From Schmidtea nova (taxonomy: Eukaryota): a stretch of DNA of 64,000 nucleotides. This document shows, in pieces, positions 7,650 to 51,890 of this stretch. The DNA is taken from the NCBI GenBank assembly GCA_044892505.1, contig CM097882.1:248930001-248994000 (forward strand). The letters run 5' to 3'. The notes beneath the pieces were generated by a model, which was given only the letters and a program-made list of their open reading frames with translations, was not told where the DNA came from and searched no databases. Within the stretch, counting starts at the first letter, position 1. Every line of letters begins with the position of its first letter. The translations under genes were made by a program, and so were the position numbers.

Positions 7650-7697
<48 letters not shown>

Positions 7698-8990: not shown

Positions 8991-9748
8991 ATAATTATAT
9001 CTTTATCGCATCCAGATGTTGCGGCATATAGTGGTTCTGCGATTCTGGCATAGTCTTTAATTAATCTTCTATAGTAGTTCGTTAATCCGAGAAACGATCT
9101 TAATTGCTTTGAACATTTTGGTATTTCTGTTTTCTCGATCTCTTCAACTTTCTTTCTGTTTGTCTGGATACCATTCTCGTTAACTGTGTGCCCAAGGAAA
9201 CACAATTCTGTTTTATTGAATTCGCATTTTTCTGGATTTATCTTCAGTCCTGCCATTTGAATTCTTCTAAATATTTCCCCTAGTAGCTCATCGTGGTCTT
9301 TTTGACTTTTCCCATAAATCAAAATATCATCTAAATAAACAACTACTCCTTTGAAAAGCATTCCTTCTAGTACTTTGTGCATCAGTCTCTGGAATGTCGC
9401 AGGAGCTGTTGCTAGACCAAACGGTAGTCTGTTAAAGCAAAATTGTCTTTCTCTTGTACTGAATGCAGTCATTTCTTGAATTTCTGGGGCCAACTCTATT
9501 TGATAGTATGCCTGGCCTAAATCAATTGACGAAAATATTTTAGAATTTGCAAGACAGTCTAGTAAGAATTTGGTATTAGGCATCGGAAATGATTCCTTTT
9601 CTGTAATGGCATTCAATCCACGATAGTCTACACACATCCTGATGGATCCATCTTTCTTCCATACTATAACTAACGGGGCATTCCAAGGACTCTTGCAACA
9701 CCGAATAACATTTGCTTTTATTAATTCTTTTATCAGTTCTTCAATCTT
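8991..9748 (-). pseudogene. Gypsy reverse transcriptase
   Basis: PWNAPLVIV..KDGSIRMCVDYRGLN, FSSIDLGQAYYQI, RLPFGLATAPATFQR, YLDD, FLGH, LRSFLGLTNYYRR. Confidence 0.95.
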
Positions 9749-10321
9749 TTACTCCATGTGCATTGGTTGACGTTTAGGATGTTGCATTATTGGGCCTCCT
9801 GTTATTCGCATCTCATGTCGAACTAAATTTGTAAATCCCAAATCAAATTTCGACGCCATAAAGATTCCGCCGTATTTCCTGATCATTCCTTCAATGTCTT
9901 TATTATCCTCACTTGCCATTGCCATCAGTGCTTTATTTATTCTTTCTTCATCAGTATGGATTTTGTTTATGTATGAGGTTTCTATATTATTGATCTTCAC
10001 TAACTTAACTCCAAACTCTTTCATTGTATCAATACCCCCTATGAATTTGGGCTTGATCTCTTTTACAACCACTACTGTGATAATTTTAGTCTTCTGATTC
10101 CATGTTGCCGATATATTCATATATCCCATTGCCTCTTCACCTCCAGTTGAAAATACGCCGCATAATAATATAGTACTACGTTGAAGGTCTGGTATGCCTA
10201 TTCTTACCCACAGATTCTTGCTCATGACTGTTACTGACGCTCCAGAGTCCCATAACATATCTACTTCTGTATTATTCAACATTATTTTACTCCAACTTCT
10301 TCCATCCTTCGTCTGATACAT
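9749..10321 (-). pseudogene. Gypsy aspartic protease and RT N-terminal linker
   Basis: LWDSGASVTV catalytic motif, IGGIDTM flap region and DLG...VRHEMRITG-GPIMQHPKR. Confidence 0.85.
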
Positions 10322-10394
10322 TTCTTCTTCTGCCTAGTCTCTTCTTCGTTCATTTCTTCTTTCATAATTTATTGTCTTGACTCCACCGACAAAA

Positions 10395-11575
10395 TCAAAC
10401 CCATGGAGTCGCTGATGTTTTTTTCCGTCTTCTCTCAATGTAGTATATATTTTCAGGAACATTGTATCTATCTTCCATATCGCTGTGAGCCATTCTGAAA
10501 TCTTGGCTGTTTTCGGTGTAATCTCTTCTTTCAGATTTGGAATCTTCTTCTATGCACGCTATTCTTTGATATCGACAGGGCACCTCTTTCCGTAACGAAA
10601 AACAATCTCGGAATCCATGTCCCTCTTTACCACATATCAGGCATTTATTTCTCAGTGGGCATTCATATCTTTTGTGTCCCCTTTCGCCACAGCAAAAACA
10701 ATCACCTACTGTTAATTTTGGTGCTTGTGGTAGTCCTCTACTTTCGTTATAAATCCTTCTTGCTATATTCTTCATGGAAATTGTTGGCAGTTTCCTTTTT
10801 GAGCCATCTTGGATTCTCACATTTCTCAAAAATTGTTCTTTTGGGAATTGTTCTCGTCGACCGCGGTAATTTTCTTCGAATTGTATTGGATGTTCGTCTC
10901 TTTTGGTCTGTGATGACTAAATGGGTCTTCTGATTGTCTTCTTTGCGATGGTGTAGGTCTGGTATCTTGAGTATTCTGTTGAATTCTTATTTGCCCTACC
11001 TCAATCACGCTGGCATATGTTCTTTTACCAATTGCTTTAACAAATTCAGTTTTATTGCTTCCATTTTGGTTACTCTCAAAAATCTTCGCCAATGATCTCG
11101 TTTCTTCAATTTTTGTTTCTGGTTTCGTCAATAATATCTCCCACAATCTCGTATCGCGTGCTTTATTTGCGATGAGATCTTGAACAATATATTCTTCTGA
11201 TCGTCCTGAATATTATAACTTCAGCTAAAGCTTTTCTTAATATAATCTCGAAAGCTTCAAAACATTCATCATCTTCCTGCTCCAGAACTGCAAATTTTCT
11301 GATTTTGTCAGTTATTGACTTCGTAATTGTGAAAGTATTTAGGAACCAAGTTTTGGCTTTCACATCTGTTGTTTCTGTTTCTCTGACGTTTCCCAACAAT
11401 GTCTTAGCTTCTGCCACTAATAACACATCGAAGGTGCTTGTCAATCGCTGTTCATTTGTCAACAGCCATTCTTCTATGTCTCTGATCCATTCTTCTGCTT
11501 CTTTCGATCTTCGTCCATTATATCATCTGATATTCAGCGTGAGCATATTTTGGCATGATTTTGGTAGGCATTCCA
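10395..11575 (-). pseudogene. Gypsy gag with two CCHC zinc knuckles, frameshifted
   Basis: CFCCGERGHKRYEC and CLICGKEGHGFRDC. Upstream fragments EWIRDIEEWLLTNEQ... lie just downstream of the PBS. Confidence 0.85.
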
Positions 11576-11621
11576 TTAACGTCTTTGTTGATTTCGAAAC
11601 TGCATTGACATTCTGATTTTC

Positions 11622-11634
11622 GGCGTGGTCACCA
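11622..11634 (-). other. Primer-binding site, probably tRNA-Arg
   Basis: TGGTGACCACG directly follows the 5' LTR. It is complementary to a tRNA 3' end of the ...CGTGGTCA-CCA type. The tRNA assignment is from memory of tRNA-Arg(TCG) acceptor stems. Confidence 0.6.
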
Positions 11635-11754
11635 GTTAAATCAAACTCGGTTTTAAGAGACTGAACTTCCTTCATAGATTTATTTCAATAAAAATTTTAC
11701 ATAAGTGCCAAAATACTTGATTATTAAAACACCAGTTAATTTAAATATCTAACT
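11634..11754 (-). repeat. 5' LTR (121 bp)
   Basis: Direct repeat of 7884-8005, followed by the PBS on the minus strand. Confidence 0.9.
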
Positions 11755-12249
11755 CTGACTTTTTCGGCTATTTAGCATAGAATTTTTGAATATTTATTGT
11801 AATCATGTATAGATAGAATTTAATTTTCTATCACATACTCTATATATATATATGTGTGTGTGTTTTTATAACTGACGTAAATATTGTAATGTAATTTAGA
11901 TGTATTTAATTTAAATAATTGATCTTATTTATTGTAATAATATGACGAGTATTGAAATATTTTATAACTTTGATGTAAATTATAATTTGGTGAAATAATA
12001 TTATTTTAACTAAATAATAGCGTCAAATCGTCTTATAAAATATTATTTAGTATTTTAAAATACTGCAACGTAATATATGTTTAGTCATAATTCTATATCG
12101 CTTTCTTGAATTTGATTTTCTGATAATAATAAATTTCCTACCCCTTATTCGATTTTGTTTGGTCAAAAGTTATGTGTGTGAAAAAACCATGATTTCTAAA
12201 TAATAATGTTTCATTCATTATTCACTTTAACAAATACAAAAGATTTAAA

Positions 12250-14640
12250 ATGAACACTATAACAACTAGCTTTATGAACGAAAGTCTAAGTGACAAAGAA
12301 AATGGTAAATTTATTTTTTAGTTTATTATCATTTAGTATTAATTTAGGTAATAGTATTAATTCAATGGGGAAATCGATTTTAGAAAATGTGGAAGAAAAC
12401 GGTATTTAATCTTTAACTTAGTATATTATTTAGTTTTTACTTTAGGTAAATATGAATGATTAAAATCGTGTTCACATAAAGATTGTTAGCGACGAAAATA
12501 TTATGATTGAAGGAATCATACCTAATAAATAAATTAATATTCAATGTAAGTATTGATTAATTTTAATTAATCTGATTAACTTTTGATAATTAATTTAATT
12601 AAATTATTAAATATTTTTAAGTAAAAATTCTGTCAATATTTTGTAATTATTTAAATAATTTTTATTTTGCGTAAAGAATTAATTTAAACAAATTTCTTAA
12701 TATTATTTTTTAATAAGTTATATATTAAATTAAAACTATTTTATCTAATTATCTAATTTAACTAATATTTATTTTAAATTTGATATTTATTTTCTAATAA
12801 CTCATATTTTTATTAATTTATTTTCAAAGAATTTTGGATATATTTAAAAATATTTCATAATTAAGATAAGTTTTATCCGAATTATTGTAATTCGTCAAAT
12901 CATAGCGACTGTCACAAATTAATGGAACAATACTATCGTCTTATAAATAACCAAGACACCTTCTTTTTATGCCTTATTTATGAGAGCGCCCAAAATATAA
13001 CATATAATAATTTTTATTCTCAACATTATTTCCATTTAAATCAATTTTTATGCTCTAAGAAAAGTCTTTTTGCATTAATTAATAAAAATAAACAAAGAAC
13101 TGTTAGTGTTTGTCCTAAACCGACTAAAATAATTGTAATTTCCGATGATAAAGATGTACATTCATCAAATGACGATATTTTAGTTATTCCTAATTTATCT
13201 GTTGTCTAATATGGTGGTTCTGTTAAACCCTTGGTTAAATATAATCTGAAAAAATCACATGCTACAGTTAAAATGGATGTGAATTCTTTAAATTTAAATT
13301 AATTAATTATTCCTTGGTCTTTATTAAATAAATTTAATTCAGTTATTTCCAAAATGTGGTATGTAAAATTACAATTCTGCATTGATGTAAATTTGAAAAA
13401 GATGGACAATTCAAATCTTTTATAATATCAAATTCCGCAAAGCCCATGAGTGATACCTTTTTAGATGAAGGTATTGCTCTATTAAGTGAAAAAACTACTA
13501 AAGTCAGTGAAAATGGCAGCAATTGGTCAATTAATAAAATTAAAGAAATAAACTTTAAACTTACAAAATATTCACAAATAAGGAGATTGAGCGGCAAAAG
13601 TTCTTGTTCAACCCCACCATCATTAAATGCAAAACATTGTACTGTCAATGTAAAAAACACCGATAATTTATGTTTTATATATATAGTATTTTGACAATTT
13701 TAAAATACGATGAGATAGATAACAATCATAGAAACAGAGCATCTAATTATAATTCCTCAGATCTTGTTTTTGATCCTTGTGATCTTCCGATCAAATTATG
13801 TAATATTCCCAAATTTGAATCGAAAAACTCCGAGCTGTCAATAAATATCCTTTCACATGATGACAGCAATTAAATTTATTGCTTTGAAAAGAATGAAGTA
13901 TTGAAACATCCATTTGTAGATATTATTCATAGGTCAAAGGTTGTAGGTGGCACTCCAATTAATTTGATATTATTAGAGGAAAGTAACTTTTTTCATTATA
14001 TAGGAGTTACCAATCTTAATAGGCTTTTGAATTCTGTTACGGATAACCGGATAAGTTGTAATTGGTGCGAGCGTTGCTTGAATGGGTTTAGATTGACTGA
14101 AGCTTTTGAGAAACACCCGACATTATGAACAAAGGATCAGTTAGGTAAAACTGTGTACACTTTACTTTTAGATAAAAATTTAGAATTTACCATTTGGTCT
14201 AAGATTGTTACCCCTTCTATCGTCGTATATGCCGATTTTACGACTATTTTATCCAAGGACGATAAGTATTTTCAACGTCACTTGCCTATTTCTGCTGACT
14301 TGTTGCTTATTAATAACTTTACTGGCGAAAAATCAAATAAAGGCTTTTATGGTTTAAATGTGTAGAAGAGTTTTTGACCGAAATCAATGATTTGTCTTAC
14401 TTTATAAATTATTTCAAAAAGGAAATGGAATATTTTTCCCCTGAACAAATTAGATCTTTTCTTAGTTACAATTTGTTATTTGTGCAATAAATCTTTGAAG
14501 AATTTGGTTAAAAATCATGACCATTATTCAGGTAAACACTTGGGTGCAGCTTGCTCTAAATGAAATTTCTCTCGGAAAATTAGATTCATCATACCTGTAA
14601 TTTTTCATAATTTACACGGTTATGATTTACGCGGATATGA
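12250..14640 (+). pseudogene. Polinton-type PolB copy 2 (three upstream exons plus N-terminal half), truncated at the Exo II motif
   Basis: ORF fragments 12922-14365 align with ORF 43897..45177 and beyond. The copy ends at FHNL..GYD. Upstream exon and intron boundaries match those of element D. Confidence 0.9.
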
Positions 14641-16719: not shown

Positions 16720-17880
16720 ACGAAGTTCAAACTCTAGTACAGTTCGATTTGCAGTAATTTGGATTTCATTTTCAAAAACTCTATATTATTACATGAACCG
16801 GTTCGTCAATGGCTTTACCAAATTTGATATCTAATCGTAAATTGCCATTTTAAAGGATTTGACTTTGATTCAAATTGAAATCAGGAACAAGAACAAAAGT
16901 AAAGAATGAATATTTTGTTTTAAATTCATCGAGACTTATACCACAATTCAAGTTTTTATCCAAATATCCTAAATTTTTAACATATGTAGCACTAAAATTA
17001 TCATTTTCCAATTCTTGATTATAATTTTCTCGATAATCAGTATTTTTCGCCAGAGATAATGAAGTGACATTAAAATGTTTGAATGTAGAAGAAGAAGTAG
17101 TATAAGATCCATTATATTGATTTTCAGATTGAAAAGCTACAAGAAGAAATTAGGCATTCTTCTATCTCAAAATATTTGCTCCTTGAAATGACGATGCCCC
17201 TTTACCGATTGCAAAAGATACAATTTCTTTTGATTTTATCGAATAAATCGCATGTTTGTTATTTAACCCAATTTGATGTCCAGCTAATACTGAAGATTCA
17301 CATCGAACTTTTCGAACCATTAATTTTTATATTATTGGTTTCCCAGTTACAGATGACATCAGATCGCTCCAATCTAATATGTACATTAACTGCAGAAAAT
17401 AAATATTTATGTTGATCCAGAAAATTTAGTTGTAATGATGAACACATGTTGAAAAGTTTCGATCCTTTAATCCACTTTTTCTATCTTCAGATGCACCATA
17501 TCCCATTGGCGTAAGACAAGTTTCTTTTGTATCACTCGTATAATTTTAAAAAGTTTCGATAATTGCCTTGAGCGCATACGTATTGTTTCCACCCTCAACG
17601 TTTATATGATTAAATCCAAGAATAGCTTCTTTAAATAGAGTATGAAATAGGTAATTATTAGGTAGTACATCACTCGCATCAGCTAATTTATTTTTATTTT
17701 TATCTACAACCTTGACTGTAACGAATAATAAAGACATATCTTTAAACTTTCGATATATTGTTTAATTTTGGTAAAATGTACTATAGAAAATCGAATGTGA
17801 GAACTATGAAAGCGGATGAAATGAATACGAGAATTGTTAGAAATGTCGAAATTATGTAAACTATTCAACTACAACAACTG
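16720..17880 (-). pseudogene. Polinton/adintovirus major capsid protein (double jelly-roll, hexon-like), decayed
   Basis: PNNYLFHTLF...NNTYALKAIIET, VNVHIRLERS, LMVRKVRCESSVLAGH, FKHFNVTS, FFTFVLVPDF, NGNLRLDIKF and FENEIQITANRTV follow the conserved order of Polinton MCP motifs. Confidence 0.85.
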
Positions 17881-18194: not shown

Positions 18195-21100
18195 TATAAA
18201 CGAGTCACATCATTATAATGTCCATATCAAGACTATCATCTTTCTTCACCCAAAGCCTTTTATCATCCAAGTTCGTTAAGGTTACTTTATGGTTTTATTA
18301 GTAAATAATTGATTATTTTTACTAACTATTCGTGATTGAGTAACCTAAACTATCGAATTATTATTATAAAAATCCAGGTACAACTGATGTTTAAGATCAG
18401 TACCCTTCATTGTTATACCCTTAGCCTTGTGATTGAGTCCTTCATCCTCGTGATTGAAATTTCCTATGAAAGAATCAAGGTTTTTCGAGTAAAAAGGATG
18501 ATTTGGGTCATATTTTGAAGTGTCTAATAACCTATCCTTAACTACAACAGACAAAAGATCTAATTTACAATTCCTAACCTCTAAGAAGAAAGAGTCTGTA
18601 TCACCTGCAACTATACTAATCTCACAGCTGAATTCATTACTATATTGTTGTAATTCTTCATACTGGAGTTGATACATCCTAAGTTTAGATAAATCCTGTA
18701 CAGTTTGACTAATGTAGCTGGATCTATCTAAACACACAACGTCCTTATTAAGCAAGACAGAAATTAGATCATCATCAATCTTATATGTTTTTCAAAAGGT
18801 AGGTTTAGAAGTATGTGTAATCAGTTTTGACCCTAAATTACATAGTCGTAAATTGAATCATTTCTTTAAATTCTCTACAGTCTTTCAATAGAAACTATTA
18901 TTTAAAAGTCTATAATTGTTTTTATCTAAAGCCGTAGAAGAAGCTGCACTAAGTTGAGTATTTGTGTCAATGTAATTTTTAAAAATTTGTTTGTGTTTGT
19001 ACTGAACAGCCCGATGAACTCTAGTTATTTTGAACCCAAAGAAAACAAAAGCTTGACAAGCCTCCAATGACCAACATAGTCGAACCTGGGATAATGCGTA
19101 AGAATCAGCTTCTCAACCTTTGGACCCGGAGCATACATTTTCTCTGCTGCAACCTGAAAAACATTTAATTTATCGTAAATTTCTGAAGGGATTTCAAGAT
19201 CCACTTCAAAAGTCACGCCATAAGTTTAAATAGCCAAATTGACACCCATTAAAACCCACCCCTATAAATTATTAATATCAATGTAAAGCAATTCAGTCGT
19301 TTCGGAGGATACTACATGGTTCTTTTTGACAAATGTCAAACCACCACGGATTCCCCCTTCGAAAAATTATAAATCTCCATATCCTGAAGCAACTTAATAA
19401 GTTCATCAAAGGTAATAAGCACAGAAGATCACGACATATCTGGAATTCCCAAGAAATTCAAAGGTTCAAGTCAATTGTGAGCTATAGATCTTGCCCTAAA
19501 TTTCTGAAAAAAATCGGCAAGAAGAAAGACATAAAGTTTAAGATAGACCATCAAATAGTCACAAAGAGTTAGACACTGGGATTCCAACCAAATCATCAAT
19601 GCCTTGTCATATTAACTTGAGTAATACCTTCCCAGATTGGTAGTAACTCGTAAGTATCATTATGCACTTGCAAAGATGTAGCAAAATTGAACGTAAAAAT
19701 ACCCTTGCAATAAACAATAATCTCGGTAAATTCAGATCGAGTCAAAGGCAAAGAAGATAATGTCTTAACATCATCATTTAGGCTTGGAATTAACTAACTG
19801 AGAAGAATCAATGAATTTAATGGTTAAATCAAGTTTAAAAATCAGTCAAACCATTTTTAAGAATATGATGCAAGTCATAGCCCTTTAAATTATGAAGAAT
19901 AACGGTTAAAAACTTATATAACAGACGGGATTCATTACAAGAATTACATGCTGCACCCAAACATTCTCCAGTGTAGTGTTCATGATCCTTAAATGGTTTG
20001 AGTAAGGATTTATTACATAGAGAAAAAATTGTCGCTACTGAAAATTCTCGTTAATTCGCTTAAGTAATAAAAAGTGGTTTCTTGTAATTATTTTTATAAA
20101 AAGGATAAACAATAGTTTAGAAATATCACTAATTTCAGAAAAGCACTTAGAATCACAATCAAGTCCTATAAAACTCTTGTAAATCTTTTCTCCAGTAAAG
20201 TTATTTACAAGTAACAGACCGACAGATATTGGGACATGTCTTTGAAAGTAGTTATCATCTACGGGTAAGATATACTTAAAAATGGCGTAAACAACAAAAT
20301 TTGAGGTTATTATTTTGTCCAATTACTAAATTTCAAATTTTTATTCTTAGGTAAAGTATAAAGAGTTCAGCCTAATTGATATTTAGCGTACAACTATTGA
20401 TGAAAATCAAATTCTTCCTGTTTACGAAATCCATTCAAGCATCGATGACACTATTACTCTGAATGCGAGTATTTGAAATTGTACGTTCATCAAGATTCAA
20501 AGGCCTATCAAGATCGGTGACTGCAATATAATGATATGCATCACAACTTTACAATAAAATCAAATTTATAGGAGTACCACTAACAACTTTAGACCTATAA
20601 ATTATATCGACACAAGAATGTTTAAAAACTTCAAGATTGGTCAAGGAATCAAACAAAGCATCATCATTAGCAAGAACATTAATAGCAAGTCCAGTGGTTT
20701 AAACATCAAATTTCGGAATATTACAGAGTCTCATGGGCTTTTCAGAATAGTCGTCAAGATCAGAATATTATAATTATTTACTCTATTTCTATTATTATAA
20801 ACTTCATCATATTTCAAAATAGCTAAAATGCTATAAATAAAACAGAAATCATCAGAAGTTCTTACGTTTATAGTACAATATTTTAATTGTAAGGACTGGG
20901 GGGTTTCAATATGACCACACCCACTCAATCGACTTATATCAGCAAACTTTGTTAATACAAAATTTATTTCGTTGAGTTTGTTAATAACCCAATTACTCCC
21001 CTTAATTAATGTTATTTTATCATTTAAAAGAGCAATAGCCTCATCTAAAAAGATATCACTTATAGGTCTTACAGAATTTGAAAGATTCAAATTCTCCATC

Positions 21101-21636
21101 TGTTTCAAACTCTACATCAATACAAAATTGTATTTTCACTGAACCCATCTCATTTAGAACATTATTTTATTTATTAATTACATTTTCGGGTAAATTTAAA
21201 GTTTTCAAAGCCAAATGAGAAACAGTCATTTTTACAATGGCGTGAGCTTTTCTTAATTCATATTTGACGTTAGTAAGAAGGGGCCCACCATATTGAACAT
21301 CTATTGCATTACTATCATTATTAGAACTAATTTCAGAGTCGAAAAGAATTTTTATATCGGACATTACCTCGTCAACTATATAAATAAATTTTATTAATAA
21401 TTATATCTCTATCATAAATTGTTAAATTAAAAAGGGATTTTTCGAAAATTTATATTTCCTTAAATGCTCCTTATGATCATCATAAAAGTTCAAAAATGTC
21501 GATTTTTAGGTTTTCTCACATACGGGACTTATAAAAAACGTGACTCATTTAAACAAATATCGATAATATTTTCCCATTAATTCGATGCATCTTTTATCAT
21601 GAATCGATGATCAGCAAAGGTCTGGGAAAAGTTTAC
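18195..21636 (-). pseudogene. Polinton-type PolB copy 3 (divergent subfamily, full length but heavily decayed; element B)
   Basis: Fragments QYGG, CTINVRTSDDFCFIYSIL, NNSFY, AGDTDSFFLE and DDKRLWV are collinear with copy 4. Candidate upstream exons lie at 22837-22987 and above 23035. Confidence 0.9.
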
Positions 21637-22264
21637 CTTAAATATAAAGAAAATAATTAAAAATATGAACCATAAATGTCAATTATTTTAATATTAAAAT
21701 TATGGTCATTATAATTACAATAATAAAAATTTAATTAAATAATTTGCATATTATAAAAAATATATATTTATTAATTTCATTAATTATATTCTAAACTAGA
21801 ATTGTTTTCATTATTAATTATAATAAAAAATGTAAAATTTAAAATTTTTACAAATATTTAAAAAATATATTATTTTAATATAATAATTGTCATTTTATAA
21901 TATGAATTACTATGAAAGAAAATAAATAATTTATTATTAATGAATTTGCAAAAAAATAATAAAAAAGTAATTTAATTATTAGAAAATAATTATTAAAATA
22001 AAATGTAGTGCCTCCGTCATATTCATATTATAAATATTTATATATAAAGTAAATTAAATTANNNNNNNNNNNNNNNNNNNNNNNNNNNNNNNNNNNNNNN
22101 NNNNNNNNNNNNNNNNNNNNNNNNNNNNNNNNNNNNNNNNNNNNNNNNNNNNNNNNNNNNNNNNNNNNNNNNNNNNNNNNNNNNNNNNNATTATATAAAG
22201 GTTGTTTAAAAAAGCAAAAAGTAAGGAGAAATTCAAATCACAAGATATGAGCACTTATTACAGA

Positions 22265-22486
22265 ATGAACGCAATTTTCTTCTTATTTCTAATCATTGTT
22301 ATCACTACAGTTTCTGCAGCATATAAGGATTATCGATGCAAATGTGTTCGCAATTTACCAAACGATATGGAATTGAAATACTGCAGCTCTCCATTCATCA
22401 TACTTGATTTTGATGAAAAGAAAACGCATCCAGCAACAATTCATTTTATATTTAATAAATATTTTTGGTTTATCCTTATTCGTTAA
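22265..22486 (+). CDS. Putative small secreted Cys-containing protein (73 aa)
   Basis: MNAIFFLFLIIVITTVSA looks like a signal peptide and is followed by YKDYRCKCV...YCSS. A TATA-like tatataaag lies at about 22191. No homology recognised. Confidence 0.3.
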   Translation: MNAIFFLFLIIVITTVSAAYKDYRCKCVRNLPNDMELKYCSSPFIILDFDEKKTHPATIHFIFNKYFWFILIR

Positions 22487-25400
22487 GTCACGATATAAAA
22501 CAATAAAAAATATTATTCAATATTCAAATTAAATTTATATTCAAATTACTTAGTTAAATATTATACAAAATTATAATAGTTATAATTATAATTAGATTTG
22601 TTTTAATAATTAGTTATAAGCTAAAAAGTAAAATTTAAATAAAAGTAAAATTCAAATAATGTAAATAATTAATCATGTAAGTAATTACTTTTGTAAAATA
22701 ATTAATGAATAAACTACAAAACTGATAAAGAAAACTAAATAAATAATAAAGCTTACTTAATATTTATTTATGTACAAAGGTAATTAATTATAACTTATGT
22801 TTATCAAATAAATTTATAAAATAAATCGACACTTACAATTTCTTTCTTTTTTCTTTTCATGGTTAAGTTTGTTTTTCATTGAACTATCCATCGTTTCAGA
22901 TGATTTTCTATTGTCATTTATAAAGTTATCCATGTTGTCAAAATCGTTGTTTTTATTGTCAATATTGCTGTTGGTTATTCATTTTATCTAAAATAAGTTG
23001 ATTATTTAAAAATTTTAAAACAAAAATTAATTTACCAAATTTAGGTTGCAGTAAAAAGTGATTCTTAAGTGAAAAACTATTGTTTATAAACTAAATTAAA
23101 AAGTTTTTAACTAATCAAAATCAAGGAAACATACACAAATATACCACAACAATGAGCGAAAATAAGAGTCAAGAAGCCCAGTTTTATAAATTCGTCACGC
23201 ATTGCAGAACCATGGACGCTACCTGGTTCAGCGATGACAAAATGGAGAAATGTAGTCACCGTGTCCAAATCCTGCAGGAATAAATAGAAGAGGCCGTGAC
23301 TAAGAACCGCGCGCTGCAAATCACCTCAAGACAACGAAATGCACAGCTTACCAAATGCCAGTTGGATTACGACATCATTGTGGCAGTAAGCCCCCAAGCT
23401 CTATTTTCTACAAACCTAGTGAATATTATGAATATTCTCCAGTCTCCATTTAAAACCAAAGTTTCTTTCCATTATATTTCTCGTGATAGGAACTTAATAC
23501 GTTAAAAGATCTTCGAACGGGTTAATTGTCTTTTAAGAATAGGTTCCTATGAAAATAAGTTATTTAACGAGTATCATTCACTATTCTAACAAATATATAT
23601 ATGATTCTGGGTTATTAGCAGGACGAAAACAGCCATTATACCTTCTATCGATCGTATTTGGGCCCAATCGAGACATTCGATAAATTATAGCCTTTGAAAC
23701 AGTGCTAACATTTTGCAAGTTGTTTACCCGTTTGTTACATCATCAATGTTGTTATGCAGTGGGTCAAAAAATGGTTCTTATAAGTTTATATAAGGGTTAT
23801 TGAGGATCGAGCCGCAGCAGTTAGTATTAATTTTACCAATAACCTACCACAGTGTTATATAAAGTTATGAGTTGATAAAATCAGAGGACATCAGAAAGTT
23901 AGAGAAATCTTGTGGCTAAGACCTTTTATCGGCACCAGATACCGGAAGTGAGAAGACACAGAGGAGTAATTTGTCAACAAAGCTCATCTGTTCATTAAAT
24001 TCTCGCCGTGCTGTGTACATTTTCAGCATACTTATCAATGAGTAACTATTGGTTTACGAGTGAGGTAAAATTAGCATTTTCATGAAGTTGTGGGTTAAGA
24101 TAACCCTAGTTACCATTATTTATAACAGCACATACACAAACATAATCGTAATTAATTTTTGAGAAATGCATAGGGTATAGATGAAAATAAGTGAATAAAT
24201 CTCTCTTTTTAAAAACATGTTAAGATGTAAAGGTATATAACAAAACGGACTTATGTGAAGACACAATATTTAGTTTAGTTCATACAAATCAGTTCTGAAT
24301 CATGCAAGCTTATCAAATATACCAGTTTAATAACAATTATTTATTCAATTAGTAACATGTATATGAATATTTTAACTTAAATTTTCTGTATTTTAATTTA
24401 AATATTGTATTATACCACAAATATTGAATTTGTTTATAAACATAATTTAAAGGTTAAATAATAAAAAGTATTTTTCAAATCTTAACTTTTCTCCAGTTCT
24501 TTTTTGTACAGAGAATTATTTAAAGTTATTTTATCTTCGTTGCATTTGAGAATTTTCTTCCAAGACGGATTTAATGGCGAACAATAAGTTAGTTAGCTTT
24601 AATTACTTTTATTTTATTAATAATTTTACCAATATTTGATAATTTGGATTATCCCAAATTAAATATTTATCTCTTGAAATCTAATATAAAATTGAAAAAC
24701 TGATTCTCATATTTTATAAATTAAATTTTTAATTTAATTTATATCAACTCAATTTATATATTAAATTAGTCCAATTAATATAATAATTAAATTAATACAA
24801 TAAATAAAATATTTCGTAGACATTAAAAATTTTTAATCTGATCTTCAATTCTACTAAAAAAAGACAAGAATATATAAACTGAACATTTTCTAAAATCATA
24901 TAGCGAGGGGGAGAATACAAAGTGATAGAAATGAAAATAGCAATGATTGTGATGTAACAGTTTAGTTTCCAATTTACTCAAAGGCAAATCAATAGTAATG
25001 TTTTGTTTCTTTTCAACACTTTTTTGAGTATTTTCTTAATATTTATTTTGAATAAAATCCTTCTAACATTATTTTTTAATAGCTAGAAGCTGAAATACGT
25101 TTACATTCGAAATATGATAAAATTGAACCATTTAAAGAGAAAATTAACGTAAATAAGGTATCAAAGATTGACTCATAAACCTGAATCTCGTCATAAACCA
25201 CATTGAATATCAAACTAAAAATATTTTTAACATCAACCATTAGTAAATCGGAACCATTTGATTTAATTGCAGATCATTTAAACAAAATTAAATGATATTT
25301 TTCGGCATTAATTTTTAATTTTAATTAATTTAGTATAATATTTATCATATACAAATTTAATTATATCAATTCCTTCAGCACAAAAAAATGATATTTTATT

Positions 25401-39136: not shown

Positions 39137-40566
39137 TCAAATCTTTATCAACAATTGAAGACCCTTTTGTTTCATATATTTTTGAACTTCAGGAACGAAG
39201 CATTCTTGGAACCATTTTGTAAAGAATTCTCCTGTCATCCACGCCTTTTTATTAGCCATCCAATGGACTAGCAGCTGTTTAATATTCTTGCCTTTCAAAG
39301 CTCGTGGCATTAATGACCTGTTGATTAACAGTGGCTTTAAAATCTTATCACCTGATGCGTTACTACACAATAAAAACGTTACTCGATCCACCAGCAGATT
39401 TTTCTGATTTAGCAATGTAGGTTCTGGAGGGCATTTCTTTCCAGAATAATCCCGTCTCATCGGCATTAAATACCTGGTCTGGCGTATAGCCACGTGTTCA
39501 ATTATTTTTATGAGTTTTTCTGGAAAACTCTTTGCAGCATTTTCATCTGCTGATGCTACTTTTCCTTTTATTTTGACATTATTAAATCCTTGCCTTTTTA
39601 GGAATCCTGTCAGTCATCCTTCACCTGCATTGAATGTCATTGTTTTCATTGCCTTGACACTTGTTGATGGCTCCAATTCTAGAAGTCGTTTGTATATTCT
39701 AAGCGCCTTTTCTTTTATAATTTTTCCATTTACAGGTATTTTTTTCTGCAGCAAATCCTCTATCCAAACCACTAAACTTTTTTCCATTTTCTCCGAGATA
39801 ATATTTCGGCTATATGATGATGCTTTGGAACTGATATTCGATCAGGAAATTACCGATCGTCGAATGGAATCCTCATTTTTTTATGGTTCTGATAGTCGCT
39901 TCACTTAAACTAAAATCTTTGCAACAGATGTGGGACCTACGCTTCTCTCAAGACTGTCTAAGATTTTTATTTTAGGTTCCAAAGAAATCGCTTGTCGCTT
40001 CCGATTATTTTTCGTTGGTTTAGACATCTTATTAATCGTCTATAATAAAAATCCAAATAAAAACACCCAATAAAAAATTTTTAAATCTAAAAAAATGTAA
40101 GTAAAACTTTTTAAAAATAATAATTTTTTCAGTAAATTACCAGTTTTTTTAAAATTTCCTTAAGTAAAATAAAACATTAATAAAAAAATTTAAAATTAAA
40201 AAAAATAACATTACCAGTTTATTAAAACTTCCTTATGTAAGTAAAATTTTCAAAAAAAATATTTGACGAAATAACAATAAAAACAAAATTAAAACATATA
40301 ATTTTTTCACGAACTTAACACAATAAAATTTAAATGGAAAATTAGAAAATGCGAATTCTGTTTCTTGATTACATATGTACATATAATAAAAATTGGGTAT
40401 TCCATGAGTTGTATTTGAATTTTGACATAGAAAAATCAAAAAGAATTTTTTTGGAAATAGTGTACAACCGAATATTTCGTGCAAAAAAAGAAGATTTGTT
40501 CATTTTTTGTGGACTGTGTTATTTCAAAATCGTGTAAAAAAGACCGTGTAAAAAGAGAGTTGGGTG
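39137..40566 (-). mobile_element. Tigger/pogo transposon, 3' truncated
   Basis: Transposase remnant 40027 to 39137 with CENP-B-like HTH segments (RQAISLEPKIKIL; VVWIED...NGKIIKEKA) and DDE_1 segments (DRVTFLLCSNASG..LKPLLI; ANKKAWMT). Terminal repeat ...gagagttgggtg followed by TA at 40567. Confidence 0.88.
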
Positions 40567-40781: not shown

Positions 40782-41254
40782 ATGGAGCCAATTATTTTTA
40801 TAATTGATGACCTTTTGACTTCGATTGAGAAATGGGATATCGACATTCTTTTAAAATTCTTCAAATTCTTCAATAATAAATTAATTATTGGTTTCACAGA
40901 CTCATTCGGATTTTATAAATCTATGATGAAATTATCCAGTTTTATTATGATTCTTAATGATATCGATTCTACTGAATTCAATATGAATACCATTTTCTGG
41001 TCATGCATAGATTTTCTACTTGGAAAATACCGTACTCTTATTCAAACTTTCATGCTGAATGTGGATAGTTTAGAGTTAAAGGTAAACAATAAATTGGAAG
41101 AAACCAAACAAAGGTTTCTCACATGTTCAATATGTAACATCAAAAGAATATCCATTTTATATTTACCTTGTGAACATGTCATTATTTGTTCAAAATGTTT
41201 AAAAAAAACTCTGATAAGTGTGAATCTTGTGATATAAATATTGATGGATATCAT

Positions 41255-41307: not shown

Positions 41308-42035
41308 GTACAAATATAGGTATTTATTTTTACTAAAACAGATTTTCAAAAGCTTTCCACTGAAAGATAAAATTAATAAAAATTGACTAGATAATATCAA
41401 ATTTACTGAATTCATAACTCGATTTACTTGCTGAAATATAGAAAATTGTAATATTTTACCAATGATACTCAGAAAATGATCATTAATTTTCAACTAGCTT
41501 TTTATTGATACAAATAGAAATATTTTTTAAAATTTATTTTCGACCATATTACATTATTAATTTTGTACAAATAGGAATAAGTATTTACTGATACACTTTC
41601 ATCTATGATATTTTTAGCAGAACCTTGCTAGGAGAACGCACTTTGTGATTTATTATTATTATTATTAGTCTTAAAATTTTTTTAATTACATAAGTTATTA
41701 TTATTATTATTATTATTTTTTATTTTCACTTCTTCCTTTTTCTCAATTCTGATTTTAAGATCAAAATTTTCAATANNNNNNNNNNNNNNNNNNNNNNNNN
41801 NNNNNNNNNNNNNNNNNNNNNNNNNNNNNNNNNNNNNNNNNNNNNNNNNNNNNNNNNNNNNNNNNNNNNNNNNNNNNNNNNNNNNNNNNNNNNNNNNNNN
41901 NNNNNNNNNNNNNNNNNNNNNNNNNNNNNNNNNNNNNNNNNTACTCTCCTGTTTTTTTTCTGACGGGTTCTTTGACACTTTATTCGGGCCTGATCAGGTT
42001 TTAAGTGTAACAATGTATAGGCAGAATTTAATTCT

Positions 42036-42690
42036 CTACAAGATGGCTTTATTCAAAATTTAAATTGTAGTCTGTTGTGTTTTGCACACGTGTTTTGTAA
42101 TTAAATTTACATTTTTCATGTATATAAAATAACTTTTTTGAGTTTTCCTTGTAATATTATATGTATAAAATTTAAATGTCTACAAAATGGCTTTATTAGA
42201 AATCTGAAAGATGTCGTATTTTGTAATACACACGTGTTTTGTAATTAATTTTGCATTTTTCGTGTATATAAAATAAATTTATTGACTTTTCATTGTAATA
42301 AAGTATATGTAAAATTTAATTTCCTATAAAATGGCTTGATTAGAAAATTAGTTTGCTAGTGTGTTTGTAATACACACGTGTTTTGTAATTAATTTTGCAT
42401 TTTTCATGTATATAAAATAAATTTATTGACTTTTCATTGTAATAAAGTATATGTAAAATTTAATTTCCTATAAAATGGCTTGATTCAAAATCTAAAAAGT
42501 TGTCGTTTTTCTTGTTACACACGTGTTTTGTAATTAATTTTGTAAGTTTTAGTTATTTAAAATAACTTTAGTGAGTTTTCATTGTAATTACATATAGATA
42601 AAATTTAAATATCTATAAAATGGCTTGATTCAAAATTAAGTATATCGATATGTTTGTGATGCACACGTGTTTTGTAATAAAATACTGGGA
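42036..42690 (+). repeat. Tandem array of about 4.5 units of about 144 bp
   Basis: Anchor atggct at 42043, 42187, 42331, 42475 and 42620. Each unit contains the palindrome acacgtgt. Confidence 0.9.
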
Positions 42691-43079
42691 TTTTTTCGAC
42701 TATTTAGCATAGATTTATTGAATGTTTATTGTAATCATGTGTAGATATCATTTAATTTCTATACTAATGAAAATTATAAAAGTTTTGTGTGTGTTATTGA
42801 CAATTCTAATGTATTTTATCAAAATTAATTAAAATATTTTTTATAACTGACGTAATTATTGAAATGTAATATAATTTAGACGTAATTTACTGAAATATTT
42901 AGTCTAATATAATTTAATCATATGACATGCATGCAATTCATTGAAATATTTTATAACTTTGATGTGTATTATAATTTGTTGAAATAACTTTTCTAGTTTT
43001 TTTTTTAAAATACTGCAACGTAATATATAATTAGTCATAATTCTCTATCTGATGATAATAATACCTTTACTGCCTCTTA

Positions 43080-43200
43080 CTCGATTCTGATTGGCTAATA
43101 AGAATAAATTTCCTACCCCTTACTCGATTTTTATTGGTCAAAGGTTATGTGTGTGTAATAACTTTGATATATAAACAATCCTTTTTCATTCATTATTCAC
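43080..43200 (+). promoter_or_regulatory. Candidate Pol II promoter of the PolB gene
   Basis: Reverse CCAAT boxes (ctgattggct, ttattggtc), then tatataaa and a tcattc initiator-like motif shortly before ATG 43225. Partly conserved at about 12130-12230. Confidence 0.5.
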
Positions 43201-43224: not shown

Positions 43225-46200
43225 ATGAACATGATAACAAGTTTTATGAACGAAAACCCAAGTGGGAAAGAAAATGGTAAATTTATTTTTTAATTTATTA
43301 TCATTTAGTATTAATTTAGGTAATATCAATAATTCAATTGGGAAATCGATGTTAGAAAATACAGAAGAAAATGGTACTTGATCATTAACTTAATAAATTA
43401 TTTAACTTTTACTTTAGGGGATGTAAATATGACTGAACAAACTACCGTACAAGCTGAGATTGTTAATAACGAGAATATTATGAATAATGGAGTTATACAT
43501 GATGTGGTATTGAATGCCCAATGTAAGTTTTGATTAATTTTAATTAATTTGATTAACTTTTAATTAATTTAGTAAATAAATGTAGTAAAATATTTGTAAA
43601 TATATATTTTTGGTAATATTTTGTAATAATTTAAATAATCTTTACTTTACGTAAACAGTTAATTTAAACAAATTCCTTTAATATTTTGTAATAATTTTTA
43701 TATTAAATTTAAATTATTTTAGTAATTATTATATTTAAATCATATTTATCTTAAATTTCATATTTATTTTCTAATAATTCATATCTTTATTAATTTATTT
43801 TAATGATTTTTTGATAAATTTAAAGATATTTCATATTAAGGTAAATTTTATGCGAATTATTGTAAGTCGTCAAATCATAACGATTGCCACAAATTAATGG
43901 AGCGATACTATCGTATTATAAATAACCAAATCACCTTCTATTTATGTCCCACATGTAAGAGCGCCCAACATATAAATTACATTGATTTTTATTTCCAACA
44001 TTATCTCCATTTAAATCAATTCACATGCACTAAGAAAAGTCTTTTCGCATTAATTAATAAATGTAAACGACGAAATGTTACTGTTTGTCCTAAACCGGCT
44101 AAAATAAATGTAATATCTGATGATGAAGATGTCCATTCATCAAATGACGATGTTTTAGTTATTCCTAATTTACATGTTGTCCAATATGGCGGTTCTGTTG
44201 AACCTTTGGTTAAATATAATTTGAAAAAATCGCACGCCATTGTTAAAATGGATGTGGATTCTTTAAATTTAAATAAATTAATTATTCCTTCACCTTTATT
44301 AAATAAATTTAATTCAGTTATTTCCAAAATGGGGTATGTAAAAGTTCAATTCTGCATTGATGTAGAATTTGAAAAGAATAAGCAATTTCAATCTTTTATA
44401 ATATCAAATTCTGCAAAACCAATGAGTGATACCTTTTTAGATGAAGGTATTGCTCTATTAAGTGAAAAAATGACTAAAGTCTGCGAAAATGGCAGCAATT
44501 GGTCAATTAATAAAATTAAAGAAATAAACTTTAAACTTACAAAATATTCACAGATAAGTAGATTGAGCGGTAAAGGTTCTTGTTCAACTCCACCATCATT
44601 AAATGCAAAACGTTGCACTGTCAATGTTAAAAATACTGATAACTTGTGTTTTATATATAGCATCTTGGCTATTTTAAAATACGATGATGTAGATAGCAAT
44701 CATCGAAATAGAAATAGAGCAACTAATTATAATCCCTCAGACCTTGTGTTTGATCCTTCTGATCTTCCTATGAAATTATGTAATATACCCAAATTTGAAG
44801 CGAAAAACCCTGGACTGTCTATAAATGTCCTTTCATATGACGAGTATGATCTAAATAATATTAATGAGGAAGAGGAAGTCATGAAACATCCACTTGTAGA
44901 TATTATTCATAGGTCAAAGGTTTTAGGTGGCACTCCAATTAATTTGATTTTGTTAGAGGAAAATGATTCTTTTCATTATATTGCAGTTACCAACATTAAC
45001 AGACTTTTAAATTGTGACACTCTTTCTGTTACTGATGTTCAAATAAGGTGCATGTGGTGCGAGCGTTGCTTGAATGGTTTTAGATTGACTGAAGCTTTTG
45101 AGAAACATCAGGCTTTATGCATAAAAAACCAGTTAGGTACAACTTTATACACTTTACCTTCAGATAAGAACTTGTAATTTAAAGATTGGTCAAAGATTGT
45201 TTCCCCTCCTTTTGTTGTATATGCCGATTTTGAGGCTGTTTTACCGAAGGACGATAAGTATTTTCAACGTCACTTGCCTATTTCTGCTGGCTTCTTGCTT
45301 ATTAATAACTTTACTGGCGAAAAATCGTATAAAAGCTTTTATGGTCTTAACTGTGTAGAAGAGTTTTTGACTGAAATCAATGATATAGGAGAAAAAGTAG
45401 TTTTACCTTACTTTATAAATAATTCCAAAAATAAAATGGAATATCTTTCTCCTGCACAAATAAGATCATTTCGTAGTTCTATTATTTGTTATTTATGTAA
45501 TAAACCTTTGAAAAATCCGGTTAAAGATCATGACCATTATACAGGTAAATACTTGGGTGCAGCTTGCTCTAAATGTAATTTTTTTCGGCAAATAAGATTC
45601 ATTATGCCTGTACTATTTCATAATTTACGCGGATATGATTTGCATCATATTCTCAAGTATGGTTTAAATAAATTGGATAAATGGAATATAAGTTGTATTC
45701 CTACTACCAGTGAAAAGTTTTTGACCTTATATGCAAGAGTCGATAGTTTAACTATTAAATTTATCGATTCTTGCCAATTTGTAAGCTGTAGCTTAAACGA
45801 TGCTGTAAAGACTTTAACAGATTTTCCTCTTACTTCATCCGAATTTATAGGGACTATTATTACATCCAAAGGCATATTCCCATATAATTTTGCAACTTCT
45901 TTAGAGGTTTTACAAAATACATACGAGTTGCCACCGATTTGGGAAGGAGTTAAAATCGACGAGTATGAAAAAGTTCAACAGATATGGGATGAATTTAATT
46001 GTGAAACATTGTTTGATTATATGATGTTATACCTGAAATTGGATGTTTTCTTACTTGCCGAATTTTTCAGCAATTTAGGGCAAAATCTATTGCACATAAC
46101 CGACTTGAGCCTCTTAATTTCTTGGGAATTCCCGGCATGTCATGGAATTCAGCTTTGATGACTTTGAAATCTCCTATCGAGTTGCTTCAAGATATGGAGA

Positions 46201-47567
46201 TGTATAATTTTTTCGAAGGGGGGATCCGTGGTGGGTTAACATTTGTTAACAAACACCATGTAGTATCCTCCGACGACATTGAGCTTCTTTATATAGATAT
46301 AAATAATTTATATGGGTGGGCCTTAAGCCAAAAACTACCTTATAAAGAATTTAAATGGGTAACTGATAGGGAAAACTTAAATAAAATAATTTATTACTGT
46401 GAATCTGATGATTTAGAAGTATTAACATTTGGATTTACATTAGAAGTCGATTTAGAAATTCCTGATTCGATTCACGACAAGCTGGATGATTTGCCAGTTG
46501 CCGCTGAAAAGATGTGTCCACCTGGCTCAAAGGTTGAGAAGTTGATGCTTACGCATTATCCCAAGAAGAACTATGTTCTTCATTGGAGACTTCTCAAACT
46601 TTTTCTTTCTCTTGGAGTAAAAATAACTCATGTCCATAGGGCAATTAAATTTAAACAAGCATGTATTTTTAAGGATTACATCGATACCAATACCAGACTT
46701 AGAGCAGAATCAAGTAATGCTCTGGGTAAAAATTATTATAAATTATTAAATAATAGTCTCTACGGTAAAATCGTAGAGAATCTTAAAAAGCGCATAAATT
46801 TAAGATTATGTAATTCGGCTTCTAGGCTGATTACATATACTTCTAAGCCAACTTTTAAAAGGACTTTCGAAATTGACGATGATTTGGTTGCAGTGTTGCT
46901 GAATCATGAATCGGTGTGTTTGGATAGACCAAGCTACATTGGTCAAACTGTACTGGATCTATCTAAACTTAGAATGTACCAGCTGCAGTATGAAGAGTTA
47001 CAAAAATATCGTAACGAATTCAACTGCGAAATCAACATAGTTGCTGGTGACACCGATTCGTTTTTTCTTGAGATTAGAAATTGTAAGCTTGATATTCTTT
47101 TACCGGCCATGATAAGAGATAACTTACTTGACACTTCTAATTATGATCCGAATCACCCATTATATAGTAGGAACCTTGATTCTGTCATTGGCAAGTTCAA
47201 AGACGAGAATAAAGGGCTTAAATATGAGGAGTGGGTGTTTCTTAGACCTAAATGTTATAGTCTTTTAGGTGACGAGGAAACTAATAAAGCTAAGGGGGCA
47301 ACATTAGCGGGTACTGACATAAAGCATCATTCGTACCTGGACTGTTTTAATAGTAACCAAATATTTTCTGTTCCCCAAACGAGAATCACAAGTAAAAATC
47401 ACCAACTTTTTACTATTAAAAATGAAAAGACTGCACTGACAAACGCAGATGATAAAAGGAAATGGGTGGCGAAAAATAAAAGCTTGGCATATGGCCATTA
47501 TATGGGAGGTGACTTGGTTATATTTCAACATACCAATCTAAGAATCAATCCATATCACCAATTCTAA
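43225..47567 (+). pseudogene. Near-intact protein-primed DNA polymerase B (DNA_pol_B_2 type) with endonuclease VII-like insertion; predicted exons 43225-43276, 43320-43373, 43418-43522, 43841-47567
   Basis: Exo I VYADFE, CYLC...KDHDHYTGKYLGAACSKCN, Exo II FHNLRGYD, Exo III YLKLDV, Pol A YIDINNLYG, Pol B KLLNNSLYGK and Pol C GDTDS. Only one in-frame TAA (45175-45177) and one frameshift near 46070-46130. Confidence 0.93.
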
Positions 47568-47589
47568 GATCAAACTGAAGAAGAAACAG

Positions 47590-47728
47590 TTTTATTAAAT
47601 AAAATTTGTTGAAGAACTTTGTTTTTTAATTATTTAGTTATATATTGTACAGATTAGTTTCAGTCTGTTTTTATAATTTGGGTAATAATTTTTAGAAACT
47701 ATGGTTACGTCATAGAAATAATAGAAAT

Positions 47729-47770
<42 letters not shown>

Positions 47771-48141
47771 TTAGTTTAATATTTATCGTATTTGATTAAG
47801 TAATTTTATGTTGTGCAGAATTGTCTCATTTTGTTATATGCTTATAATGTTTTGATGAGTGCTTTCATTGAACGTTTATCATTGAAGGTGTAGAAAAATA
47901 TTAAGAACAATAATAAATTATATTAACAAAAGTAAATTAATAATATTAAAAAAAAAAATAAATAACTAATTAAAATAAATTAATAAAAAAAAAAAAATTA
48001 TTTAAATAAAAAAAAAAGAAATAATTTAATAATAAAATAAATAATAAAAATTCTAAACATTTAAACAAAACACACTTTAAAAATGGCGCCAAAAAACGCG
48101 CGATAACTCATAGTGACGCAGTCCTGACACATCTACCTACT
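47590..48141 (+). repeat. Right subterminal region of element D, repeated in inverted orientation at 51904-52430
   Basis: Shared blocks gtttcagtctgtttttataatttg, tatggttacgtca, caatgataaacg and aaaacgcgcgataactcata in the same order. Confidence 0.85.
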
Positions 48142-49809: not shown

Positions 49810-51890
49810 TTTTAGAGACCCATTCAATATTAATTGCTCAATATTTACGTAACTCCACATATTGTTATTTATACATCCGAAGTTTTTATAAATCCAAAAC
49901 TGATTTATGTATATATCTGCCTATATCCAAACAAATAGAATCTTTTTTTAGTAATGCAGCTATTAAATCATCATCTCACTTGATAATTCTTTGAAAATTT
50001 GGCTTCGAAGCATATGTTATTATCTTTCGTTCAGTCAAATCCAATTTTTCTTTCAAATTTTGAACTGTTTTTCTGTTCAGAATTTTTTCAAAAGCTGATT
50101 ATAATTCATATCAATTCTATTATTCGAGTCAGCTTTTAGATTAGTATTTGTATCAATATACTTTTCGAAAATAGTAGCCTGTTTAAATATAACAGCTCTA
50201 TGTATATTGATTATTTTTACACCCAATAATAAAAACATTTGAAATAACCGCCAGTGATTTACATAAATTTTTCTTTGGATAGTGTGCCATTATTAAATTT
50301 TCTACTTTAGATCCTGGAGCATACATTTTCTATTTTAGATCCTGGAGCATACATCTTTTCATCTGCTACATGTAGATCATACAAGAAATCATGAATTTCT
50401 GAAGAAATCTCTAAATCAATTTCTACCATCTAGCTATTCGGAAGCGTTTCTTATTCTAAATTCTTGCATTCTTCTAAGATTTTATCTAGATCTGAATGAA
50501 TTCAACTAAAATCTACACGTGGCAAGCATTGTATTAAAGGTTATTAGTGTCTATGTCCAATAATTCAGTAGTCCCATCTGATTTAACATAATTCATGTTC
50601 ACACAAGTAAGGCCACCACTAATTCCTTCATTAAAGTTAAAAATTTCCATTTTTTGTATCAGTTTAATTAGTTCATCTAAAGTTACAAGTGATGATGCCC
50701 AAGACATTCTAGGAATTCCATAAAAGTTCAATGGTTCCAATCGATTATGAGCTATGAACTTGATTTAAAATTGCTGGAAAAAATCAGTCAATAGAAACAC
50801 GCCAAGTTTCAAATAAATTAACTGATAATCCATCAATGTTTCACAACCGGTTTCTTTTCATATATGTTTCTAGAAATTCTTGACTAGTTGCAAAGTTATA
50901 TGGAAATATTCTTTTTGATTCTACTATAATCCCATTAAATTCGCATTTCATAATGGGTAATGTGTTCAATGTTTTGACAGCTTTATCTAAGAATTAATTG
51001 ACAAACTGATAATAATCAATACATTTTATTGAAATTCCACTAATTTATACAATAAGTGATAGAATCTTCTCAGTACTAAGAGGAATACAGCTTAAATTCC
51101 AATTCGGAAAATGATTTAAGCCATGCTTAAGGATATGGTGTAAATCATTACCCTTCAAATTGTGAAACATAACGGGCAATATTTCATTGTTTTACCTTGA
51201 CATATTACATTTATTACATGCTGGACCAATATATTTCCCTGTAAAATGATCGTGATCTCTGACCTTTTCTATTATCTTTTTCTTGCACAAGTAACAAATT
51301 GCAGATGTTTCGAATGATTGATTTTCATCTAGAGACAGTGATGACATTGGCTTTTTCACTTCATTGATGTAATATGGAAAAACAATTTTTGTTTCTATAA
51401 TCTTTACTTTCTTCAAAGATTGATGAACACAACCATAACAAACAAATTAGTAGTTATTTGATATTCCGTTACAATTGTTGATTAATAATAGTCCCGATGA
51501 AATTGGTAAATGTTTTTGAAAATGAGTGTCATCTTTTGGCAAAATCGACTCAAAATTTGCATAAAAAACAAATGATGTGCTATTATCTTTGACTAGTTTT
51601 TGAATTCCAAATTTATATATGTCTTGTAAGTGGGGTAAGGGAAGTCTCATTACTTTTCAGACACGCCAAATATTTAAGGTTGTATATAATTGATTTTTCT
51701 TGCACAATGCTTGATGCTTTTCAAAAGCTTTTTTCTTCCTGAATCCATTTGAACAATTTTCACACAATTTGCTACAGATCTGAATATTACAATTTAATGA
51801 AAGTGATCTTTATTTTCTGCTTCCCATCTATGACTTTTGATCAATGAATTATATTCAAATGCGGATGTTTCATTTCAACATTATTCATAT
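49810..51890 (-). pseudogene. Polinton-type PolB copy 5 (central fragment, decayed)
   Basis: EMKHPHLNIIH, CSNGFRKKKAFEKHQALC, VFYANFE, VRDHDHFTGKYIGPACNKCN, EGISGGLT and DIDTNNL. Stops before GDTDS. Confidence 0.88.

Follow-up and report, generated by a model that had tools for sequence, protein, structure and literature searches.

Copy C is a Polinton-type gene encoding a family B DNA polymerase of the protein-primed kind (PolB) and lies, together with two further copies (A and B), in a 64,000-nucleotide stretch of the Schmidtea nova genome (assembly GCA_044892505.1, contig CM097882.1, positions 248,930,001 to 248,994,000 of the forward strand), referred to here as the window. Comparison with its relatives in the same genome indicates that copy C is, in all likelihood, a broken arm of a family of elements with PolB as their only gene, in which the polymerase would have a spliced three-exon start, palindromes would form by snap-back replication, and the integrase would be borrowed. 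The leader introns are very likely real and of the host spliceosomal kind, and the palindromic PolB-only family is accepted with only slightly less assurance.

The spliced start of the polymerase gene

The three leader exons and phase-1 GT-AG introns which the initial annotation had placed ahead of the main open reading frame (ORF) of copy C were borne out to the base (Table 1). The predicted introns are 82-91% AT and carry the hallmarks of the U2 type, namely GT-AG ends, an AT/pyrimidine-rich 3′ end, and a frame that is restored upon their removal. Exon 1 has a constant length across all scored copies of the family, and a TATAAA sequence is found upstream of it at 43170-43175. A stop immediately 5′ of the acceptor (43840) closes the main frame, in which Met first occurs at 43897. 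The polymerase body of copy C is disrupted twice, by a stop codon at 45175-45177 and by a frameshift that falls within 46035-46077, and copies A and B are decayed as well; the test of splicing was therefore drawn from other copies.

Conservation among the three copies in the window, to which the initial annotation had pointed, is weak evidence on its own given the decay of A and B, but the cross-family tests described below place splice-site and frame conservation above chance. Copy A keeps all six splice dinucleotides, as claimed, with introns of 43, 44, and 320 nt; its changes are synonymous or conservative only in exons 1 and 2 and at the start of exon 4, whereas exon 3 has a 5-nt deletion (leaving 100 nt), a frameshift, and stops, and the split codon reads Tyr. 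Copy B does contain the proposed acceptor (21637/21636), Asn-rich exon (151 nt), and 48-nt intron; being decayed, however, it has this exon out of frame. Among 13 aligned copies of its family the short intron begins with GT in 11 and ends with AG in 13; since an ATG lies approximately 5 nt 3′ of the acceptor in all 13, whereas the stretch immediately 5′ of the intron showed none, this intron probably sits in the 5′ untranslated region.

The genome assembly (1.25 Gb) bears a large Polinton load, and each query with the 70-residue N-terminal domain gave some 20,000 candidates. The 150 best matches were scored in each of three families (for that of copy C, the best 150 of 20,553), and these are 97-100% identical to their query. 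The AG of the last acceptor is found at the same place in 134/134 profile matches, overlapping stretches included, and in all ten PolB clusters found, the representatives of which share 44-57% identity in the N-terminal domain. Six representatives from five clusters possess three or four leader exons, the first of length 3n+1 and the others 3n, and short introns of 43-57 nt followed by a long last intron; exon GC content is 0.23-0.42 versus 0.06-0.18 for the introns. The last split codon specifies Cys in each of the six, and in 89 of 91 scored copies of the three families (23/23, 36/36, and 30/32). Unsplit PolB genes from metagenomes have Cys in the same column in 5/5 cases, with an ATG two to four residues before it; splicing would therefore supply a conserved residue.

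The three-family comparison comprised 24, 38, and 32 distinct sequences, from which 69/72, 111/152, and 109/128 exon instances were scored, canonical ends being required. Net length variants are multiples of three for 37 of 39 in exons versus 31 of 86 in introns (Fisher p = 1e-10), and the ratio of nonsynonymous to synonymous polymorphism (pN/pS) in the leader stands at 0.39 in one sister family and 0.33 in another. The initial annotation's proposal of spliceosomal introns at the 5′ end of a Polinton polymerase gene draws support from the invariant acceptor, the split Cys, the rule of threes, and the pN/pS values. Two other measures were set aside. A first indel-by-indel count (exon indels in threes, 6/16, 33/103, and 41/65) was discarded on account of alignment noise in AT-rich repeats and truncated loci, and was replaced by net exon lengths; substitution rates at splice dinucleotides (0.17-0.31 per site versus 0.29-0.52 in introns) cover only 12-16 sites and were not used.

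The PolB frame matches PF03175 (protein-primed family B polymerase) with E values of 1.8e-8 and 9.7e-18 and has relatives at 47-63% identity. In the predicted structure, the first 450 residues after the last intron open with a compact Cys/His domain, which is followed by a disordered linker, an α/β domain, and a domain with invariant Cys270 and His376. The α/β domain, which is terminal protein (TP)-like, weakly resembles Y-family polymerases (E 0.007-0.06), and the modeled domain order fits the TP-vOTU layout given in the available text of PMC11071308. Over the whole region the best viral fold match is a “C2H2-type” protein of a Drosophila-associated adintovirus (E 4e-21). A PDB fold search with residues 1-450 yielded nothing at E≤0.001, and Pfam returned no family for the N-terminal 444 residues. 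Zinc binding by the Cys/His domain is putative, being suggested by the motif and the model. The invariant Cys, His, and Cys of this conserved domain lie upstream of Met 43897, and the spliced leader would contribute a start codon, a disordered tail that changes quickly, and the first of the zinc ligands. At L177:61-738 the same Cys/His domain also begins a distinct gene located upstream of PolB.

Several observations count against the spliced start. The p-values overstate independence because the copies are related and because certain leader exons contain in-frame repeat units that push up the count of multiples of three; in copy C's own family leader pN/pS is 0.59, which is not significant (p=0.15); and the six representatives include one exon-1 stop and one non-GT donor, which we read as decay. 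The Cys/His domain, modeled from an unsplit relative with a predicted local distance difference test (pLDDT) score of 84, has no clear match among solved structures: its best structural match reaches Z 2.7 with a root-mean-square deviation of 4.3 over 58 aligned residues, and a wide structure search found none at Z≥5. The leaders are of low complexity and cannot be aligned between families, for which reason the leader may itself do little. The same absence of homology would accord with a reading in which only the last acceptor matters, or translation starts at Met 43897, the upstream “exons” being AT-rich non-coding DNA with chance GT and AG, dinucleotides whose frequencies per position in the region are about 4% and 3%. 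Four database relatives are, in addition, annotated from the Met corresponding to 43897. A start there would, however, cut through the conserved domain, exon lengths vary in threes, and the database starts presumably come from ORF-type gene calling; their common internal Met hints at the same leader. We consider this reading very unlikely.

Predicted introns are also found in the full-length Polintons of this genome, which measure 18-20 kb, possess 6-bp target duplications, and carry a TATA-binding-protein (TBP)-like gene, ATPase, integrase, capsid-like genes, protease, and a PolB gene oriented toward the right end. The names capsid and protease are ones which we take from motif recognition, and Pfam gave nothing for the capsid-like ORFs. 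The integrase motif QTDLG-KEF is interrupted by a GT-AG intron of 40-46 nt in eight occurrences, six of them not multiples of three, with conserved flanks and variable intron sequence; an intron of 37-40 nt is predicted after the start ATG of the protease in ten occurrences. Three metagenome PolB genes (L163, L176, and L181) carry their own GT-AG introns of 44-62 nt. In a quick tree the PolBs of this genome constitute one clade (Shimodaira-Hasegawa-like approximate likelihood-ratio support 100) with the copy C family sister to the rest, and the three intron-bearing metagenome genes group with the unsplit L182 and L162, because of which introns were likely gained separately, apparently more than once in the clade. 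Among viral contigs, none of 276 pattern matches was confirmed. In the full-length families P6 and F6 (L070-L071, L153-L155) the TBP-like gene (PF00352, E 2e-14) stands head to head with the ATPase, and a decayed piece of such a gene is present at window 3793-3969.

Palindromic PolB-only elements

Among the best 150 matches to copy C, 104 fall into 52 head-to-head pairs lying 2.5-34 kb apart, with one other close neighbor. Eight pairs were examined (E1-E8). In the complete ones, each of two divergent PolB genes runs from a 144-bp tandem array outward to an element end, the two arrays being inverted about a short spacer. Complete palindromes measure 12.7-14.1 kb, or 20 and 40 kb with inserts, and their interiors contain no integrase, ATPase, protease, or capsid gene. 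Since these genes are absent from E1-E8 and present in the full-length families F6, P6, and F7, the copy C family is filed, on gene content, as a putative non-autonomous Polinton derivative. Ends of the form AGTAG...CTACT were found in six elements of the family. The target duplication is perfect (6/6 bp) in E3, E4, E6, E7, and E8 and 5/6 in E1; E2 and E5, each with one interrupted arm, were left out of this scoring. Among five elements compared, the two arms of one element share 99.5-99.8% identity versus 94.8-99.3% for arms of different elements, so that arms group by element, and several palindromes retain an open polymerase frame in both arms.

Of 20 apparently unpaired copies that were examined, 13 proved to have a whole or partial inverted arm; none has an integrase or capsid gene within 10 kb upstream, and one adjoins the left end of another Polinton. 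Two points tell against a purely palindromic family. Seven of the 20, and copy C itself, are without a second arm, copy C being a single arm with array and right end (48141) for which no left arm was found in the window; and, only the best 150 of 20,553 candidates having been scored, a full-length parent of the family may exist. A full-length F7 element and copy C have the same terminal 15 nt. Terminus detection called no ends for F3 and F7.

Palindromes are not restricted to this family. Four close pairs from two other families are likewise PolB-only palindromes, of 17-18.6 kb; F3 and F4 match their own reverse complement across 17-18 kb at >99%; and F5 (L147-L152) is a palindrome each arm of which comprises nearly all of a Polinton (18 kb, 99.3%), a further Polinton being nested in one of the two. 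The older family of copy B has head-to-head pairs about 2.5 kb apart at C2:335913232-335916158 and C1:406741365-406744402.

A mini-element bearing terminal inverted repeats (TIRs) occupies the center of E2, E3, E4, and E8. That of E3 (L038:4650-5352) is 700 bp in length, has AGTAG...CTACT ends, is 76-88% like the terminal repeats of F6/P6, and has flanks which are inverted rather than direct; it is likely to be the fold-back point. A piece similar to it is present at window 7488-7779, upstream of copy A across a long terminal repeat (LTR) insertion.

A proposed snap-back mechanism and its alternatives

Polintons are copied as DNA by protein-primed strand-displacement synthesis from their ends, and integrate with a 6-bp duplication. 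In the case of copy C's relatives, transcription by the host would begin upstream of 43225, and removal of the three introns would add a low-complexity leader of some 70 residues and the first Cys of the Cys/His domain, together with the 18 residues ahead of Met 43897 which ORF-based gene calls miss. Because Polintons are copied as DNA, the introns would never be purged by reverse transcription. Synthesis would start at the PolB-proximal end, and the strand thus started would fold back at an internal inverted repeat, be it the array or the central mini-element, and extend on itself; the product would have two identical ends, or origins, and two polymerase genes, and repeated copying would keep its arms alike. 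Such palindromes would integrate by means of integrase provided in trans by full-length Polintons. Since both arms are enclosed by the target duplication, the palindrome would have formed before integration, which argues against both host rearrangement and artefact. Snap-back replication with a helper integrase is the mechanism we favor as reasonably probable from the sequences at hand. With a slighter preference we suggest that a nuclear, host-spliced Polinton lineage, its polymerase, integrase, and protease all interrupted by introns, repeatedly sheds snap-back palindromes that integrate, one of which has become a family of self-copying, two-polymerase parasites relying on the integrase of others, that is, a heritable DNA counterpart of a defective-interfering element in the genome of an animal. 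Panhandle repair of adenovirus minichromosomes offers a parallel to the snap-back step, although no paper on it was found.

The introns might be real and the palindromes nevertheless be products of internal deletion, or inverted duplications made by the host through gene conversion or break repair after insertion. Polintons have TIRs by definition, the palindrome centers vary and hold insertions (E7, E8), and many copies are asymmetric, all of which would accord with such an origin. Internal deletion cannot, however, yield two PolBs from full-length families (F6, P6, F7) that carry this gene at one end only, while the position of the target duplications, the grouping of arms by element, and the self-complementarity of F3 and F4 speak against rearrangement in place. 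The centers of E2, E3, E4, and E8 are, moreover, common to elements at unrelated sites with target duplications of their own. This origin therefore appears improbable. Near-perfect inverted repeats are also a known class of assembly or amplification artefact, caused by fold-back reads, yet the arms here are 0.2-0.5% divergent and have breaks and insertions of their own, and symmetry ends exactly at AGTAG/CTACT, beyond which direct 6-bp repeats are found rather than mirrored host DNA; an artefact is the least credible explanation of all, and formation by snap-back before integration remains the preferred one.

Relation to known systems and neighboring elements

The initial annotation had remarked that Polinton core genes are generally described as intronless, and this agrees with the available text of reports on vertebrate Mavericks (PMC8097293), a nematode Maverick with introns in cargo genes only (bioRxiv 2022.07.12.499685), and protist endogenous viruses (PMC10120064). 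A term search of the available text of PMC8502044, PMC10748475, PMC12220804, and PMC5718144 returned no spliceosomal introns in core genes, the first three mentioning group I/II introns only. Our literature search found no description of spliceosomal introns in core genes of animal Polintons or of palindromic PolB-only Polintons, although Repbase entries and supplements, which lay outside it, may hold such annotation. The elements described here resemble Polintons/Mavericks (adintoviruses, eupolintoviruses) in their pPolB (PF03175), TP-like domain, and vOTU-type Cys and His columns (as far as set out in PMC11071308), in AG...CT ends and 6-bp target duplications, and in having adintovirus proteins as best viral fold matches. 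They differ in the predicted introns of PolB, integrase, and protease, the intronless state being a descriptive trait (PMC8097293) and not a strict criterion of a Polinton; the copy C family differs further in having two mirror-image PolB genes and no integrase or capsid.

The nearest report, to judge from its available text, is that of introner-invaded polinton-like viruses of dinoflagellates (PMC12166617), in which intron-type sequences likewise reside inside Polinton-like elements; those are recent insertions of intron-making transposons, whereas the positions here are old and common to families and the sequences unalignable. Snap-back or copy-back defective viral genomes, as outlined in the text available for PMC13506859, are similar in being palindromes of one genome end with identical termini and helper dependence, which in our case is deduced from gene content and target duplications. 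They are mainly RNA-viral and non-coding, whereas the palindromes here are DNA, integrated, and inherited, and have an open polymerase frame. In the adenovirus E2B unit a tiny upstream exon supplies the start codon. The E2B polymerase and terminal-protein mRNAs resemble the present case in that a pPolB relative is expressed from spliced nuclear mRNA (PMC7851563, available text). Adenovirus, however, does not integrate and has TP as a separate gene, whereas here two to four coding leader exons with short, host-like introns are predicted.

Polinton surveys call genes and judge intactness by intronless ORFs (PMC8097293 and PMC10120064, in the text available). Such surveys would mis-annotate lineages of this kind, reporting a truncated polymerase and an integrase seemingly frameshifted beside its catalytic motif. 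Introns of the host type imply that the host transcribes such genes in the nucleus. The palindromes would represent integrated snapshots of a likely replication by-product, giving a testable handle on the unobserved replication cycle of Polintons, and divergence between arms offers an LTR-like clock for insertion age.

Table 1. Coordinates of the polymerase copies and associated features in the window
Feature	Position	Strand	Remarks
Predicted exon 1, copy C	43225-43276	+	52 nt; starts with ATG; Asn-rich
Predicted intron 1, copy C	43277-43319	+	43 nt; GT-AG; phase 1
Predicted exon 2, copy C	43320-43373	+	54 nt; open frame
Predicted intron 2, copy C	43374-43417	+	44 nt; GT-AG; phase 1
Predicted exon 3, copy C	43418-43522	+	105 nt; last base is first base of split Cys codon
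Predicted intron 3, copy C	43523-43840	+	318 nt; GT-AG; phase 1; position common to all 10 PolB clusters found in genome
Main pPolB exon, copy C	43841-47599	+	Cys/His domain (putatively zinc-binding), linker, TP-like domain, vOTU-like domain, and exonuclease/polymerase; broken by stop and frameshift
144-bp tandem array	41998-42763	+	5′ of gene; flanks palindrome center in both orientations in relatives
Element right end	47632-48141	+	ends CTACCTACT (5′-AGTAG on opposite strand)
Copy A	12250-14630	+	80% identical to copy C; exons 12250-12304, 12348-12401, 12446-12545; acceptor before 12866; PolB truncated at 14630
Copy B	18285-23035	-	belongs to older family; intron of 48 nt at 23035-22988, exon at 22987-22837, long intron at 22836-21637, and decayed PolB at 21636-18285

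On the minus strand at 51904-61437 the window contains both an end related to that of copy C and a long 144-bp array; no PolB separates the two, and the whole interrupts an older PolB remnant (49841-51873). A segmented Polinton, with the same ends and other cargo, was considered for this region and dropped; the ORF at 53620-54312 is part of a different repeat (at least 150 matches), and 11 other loci of its family are without such a terminus or array nearby. Other features of the window are the remnant of an LTR retrotransposon with protease and reverse transcriptase (7883-11756), the remnant of a capsid-like gene (16976-17734), a piece of DDE_1 transposase (39137-39613), and a RING-finger ORF (40782-41237) which is also present in L067. 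Inserts at related loci include a MATH/TRAF ORF (L050) and, between direct repeats within a PolB arm, an ORF of 1218 residues joining Dcc1, Hsp90, and ubiquitin pieces (L036:335-3988). A gypsy polyprotein of 3286 residues (L053-L054), suggestive of a planarian host, runs in a single frame through gag, a Monjiviricetes-type fusion domain, and pol, a layout like that of Burro in the available text of PMC6431247.
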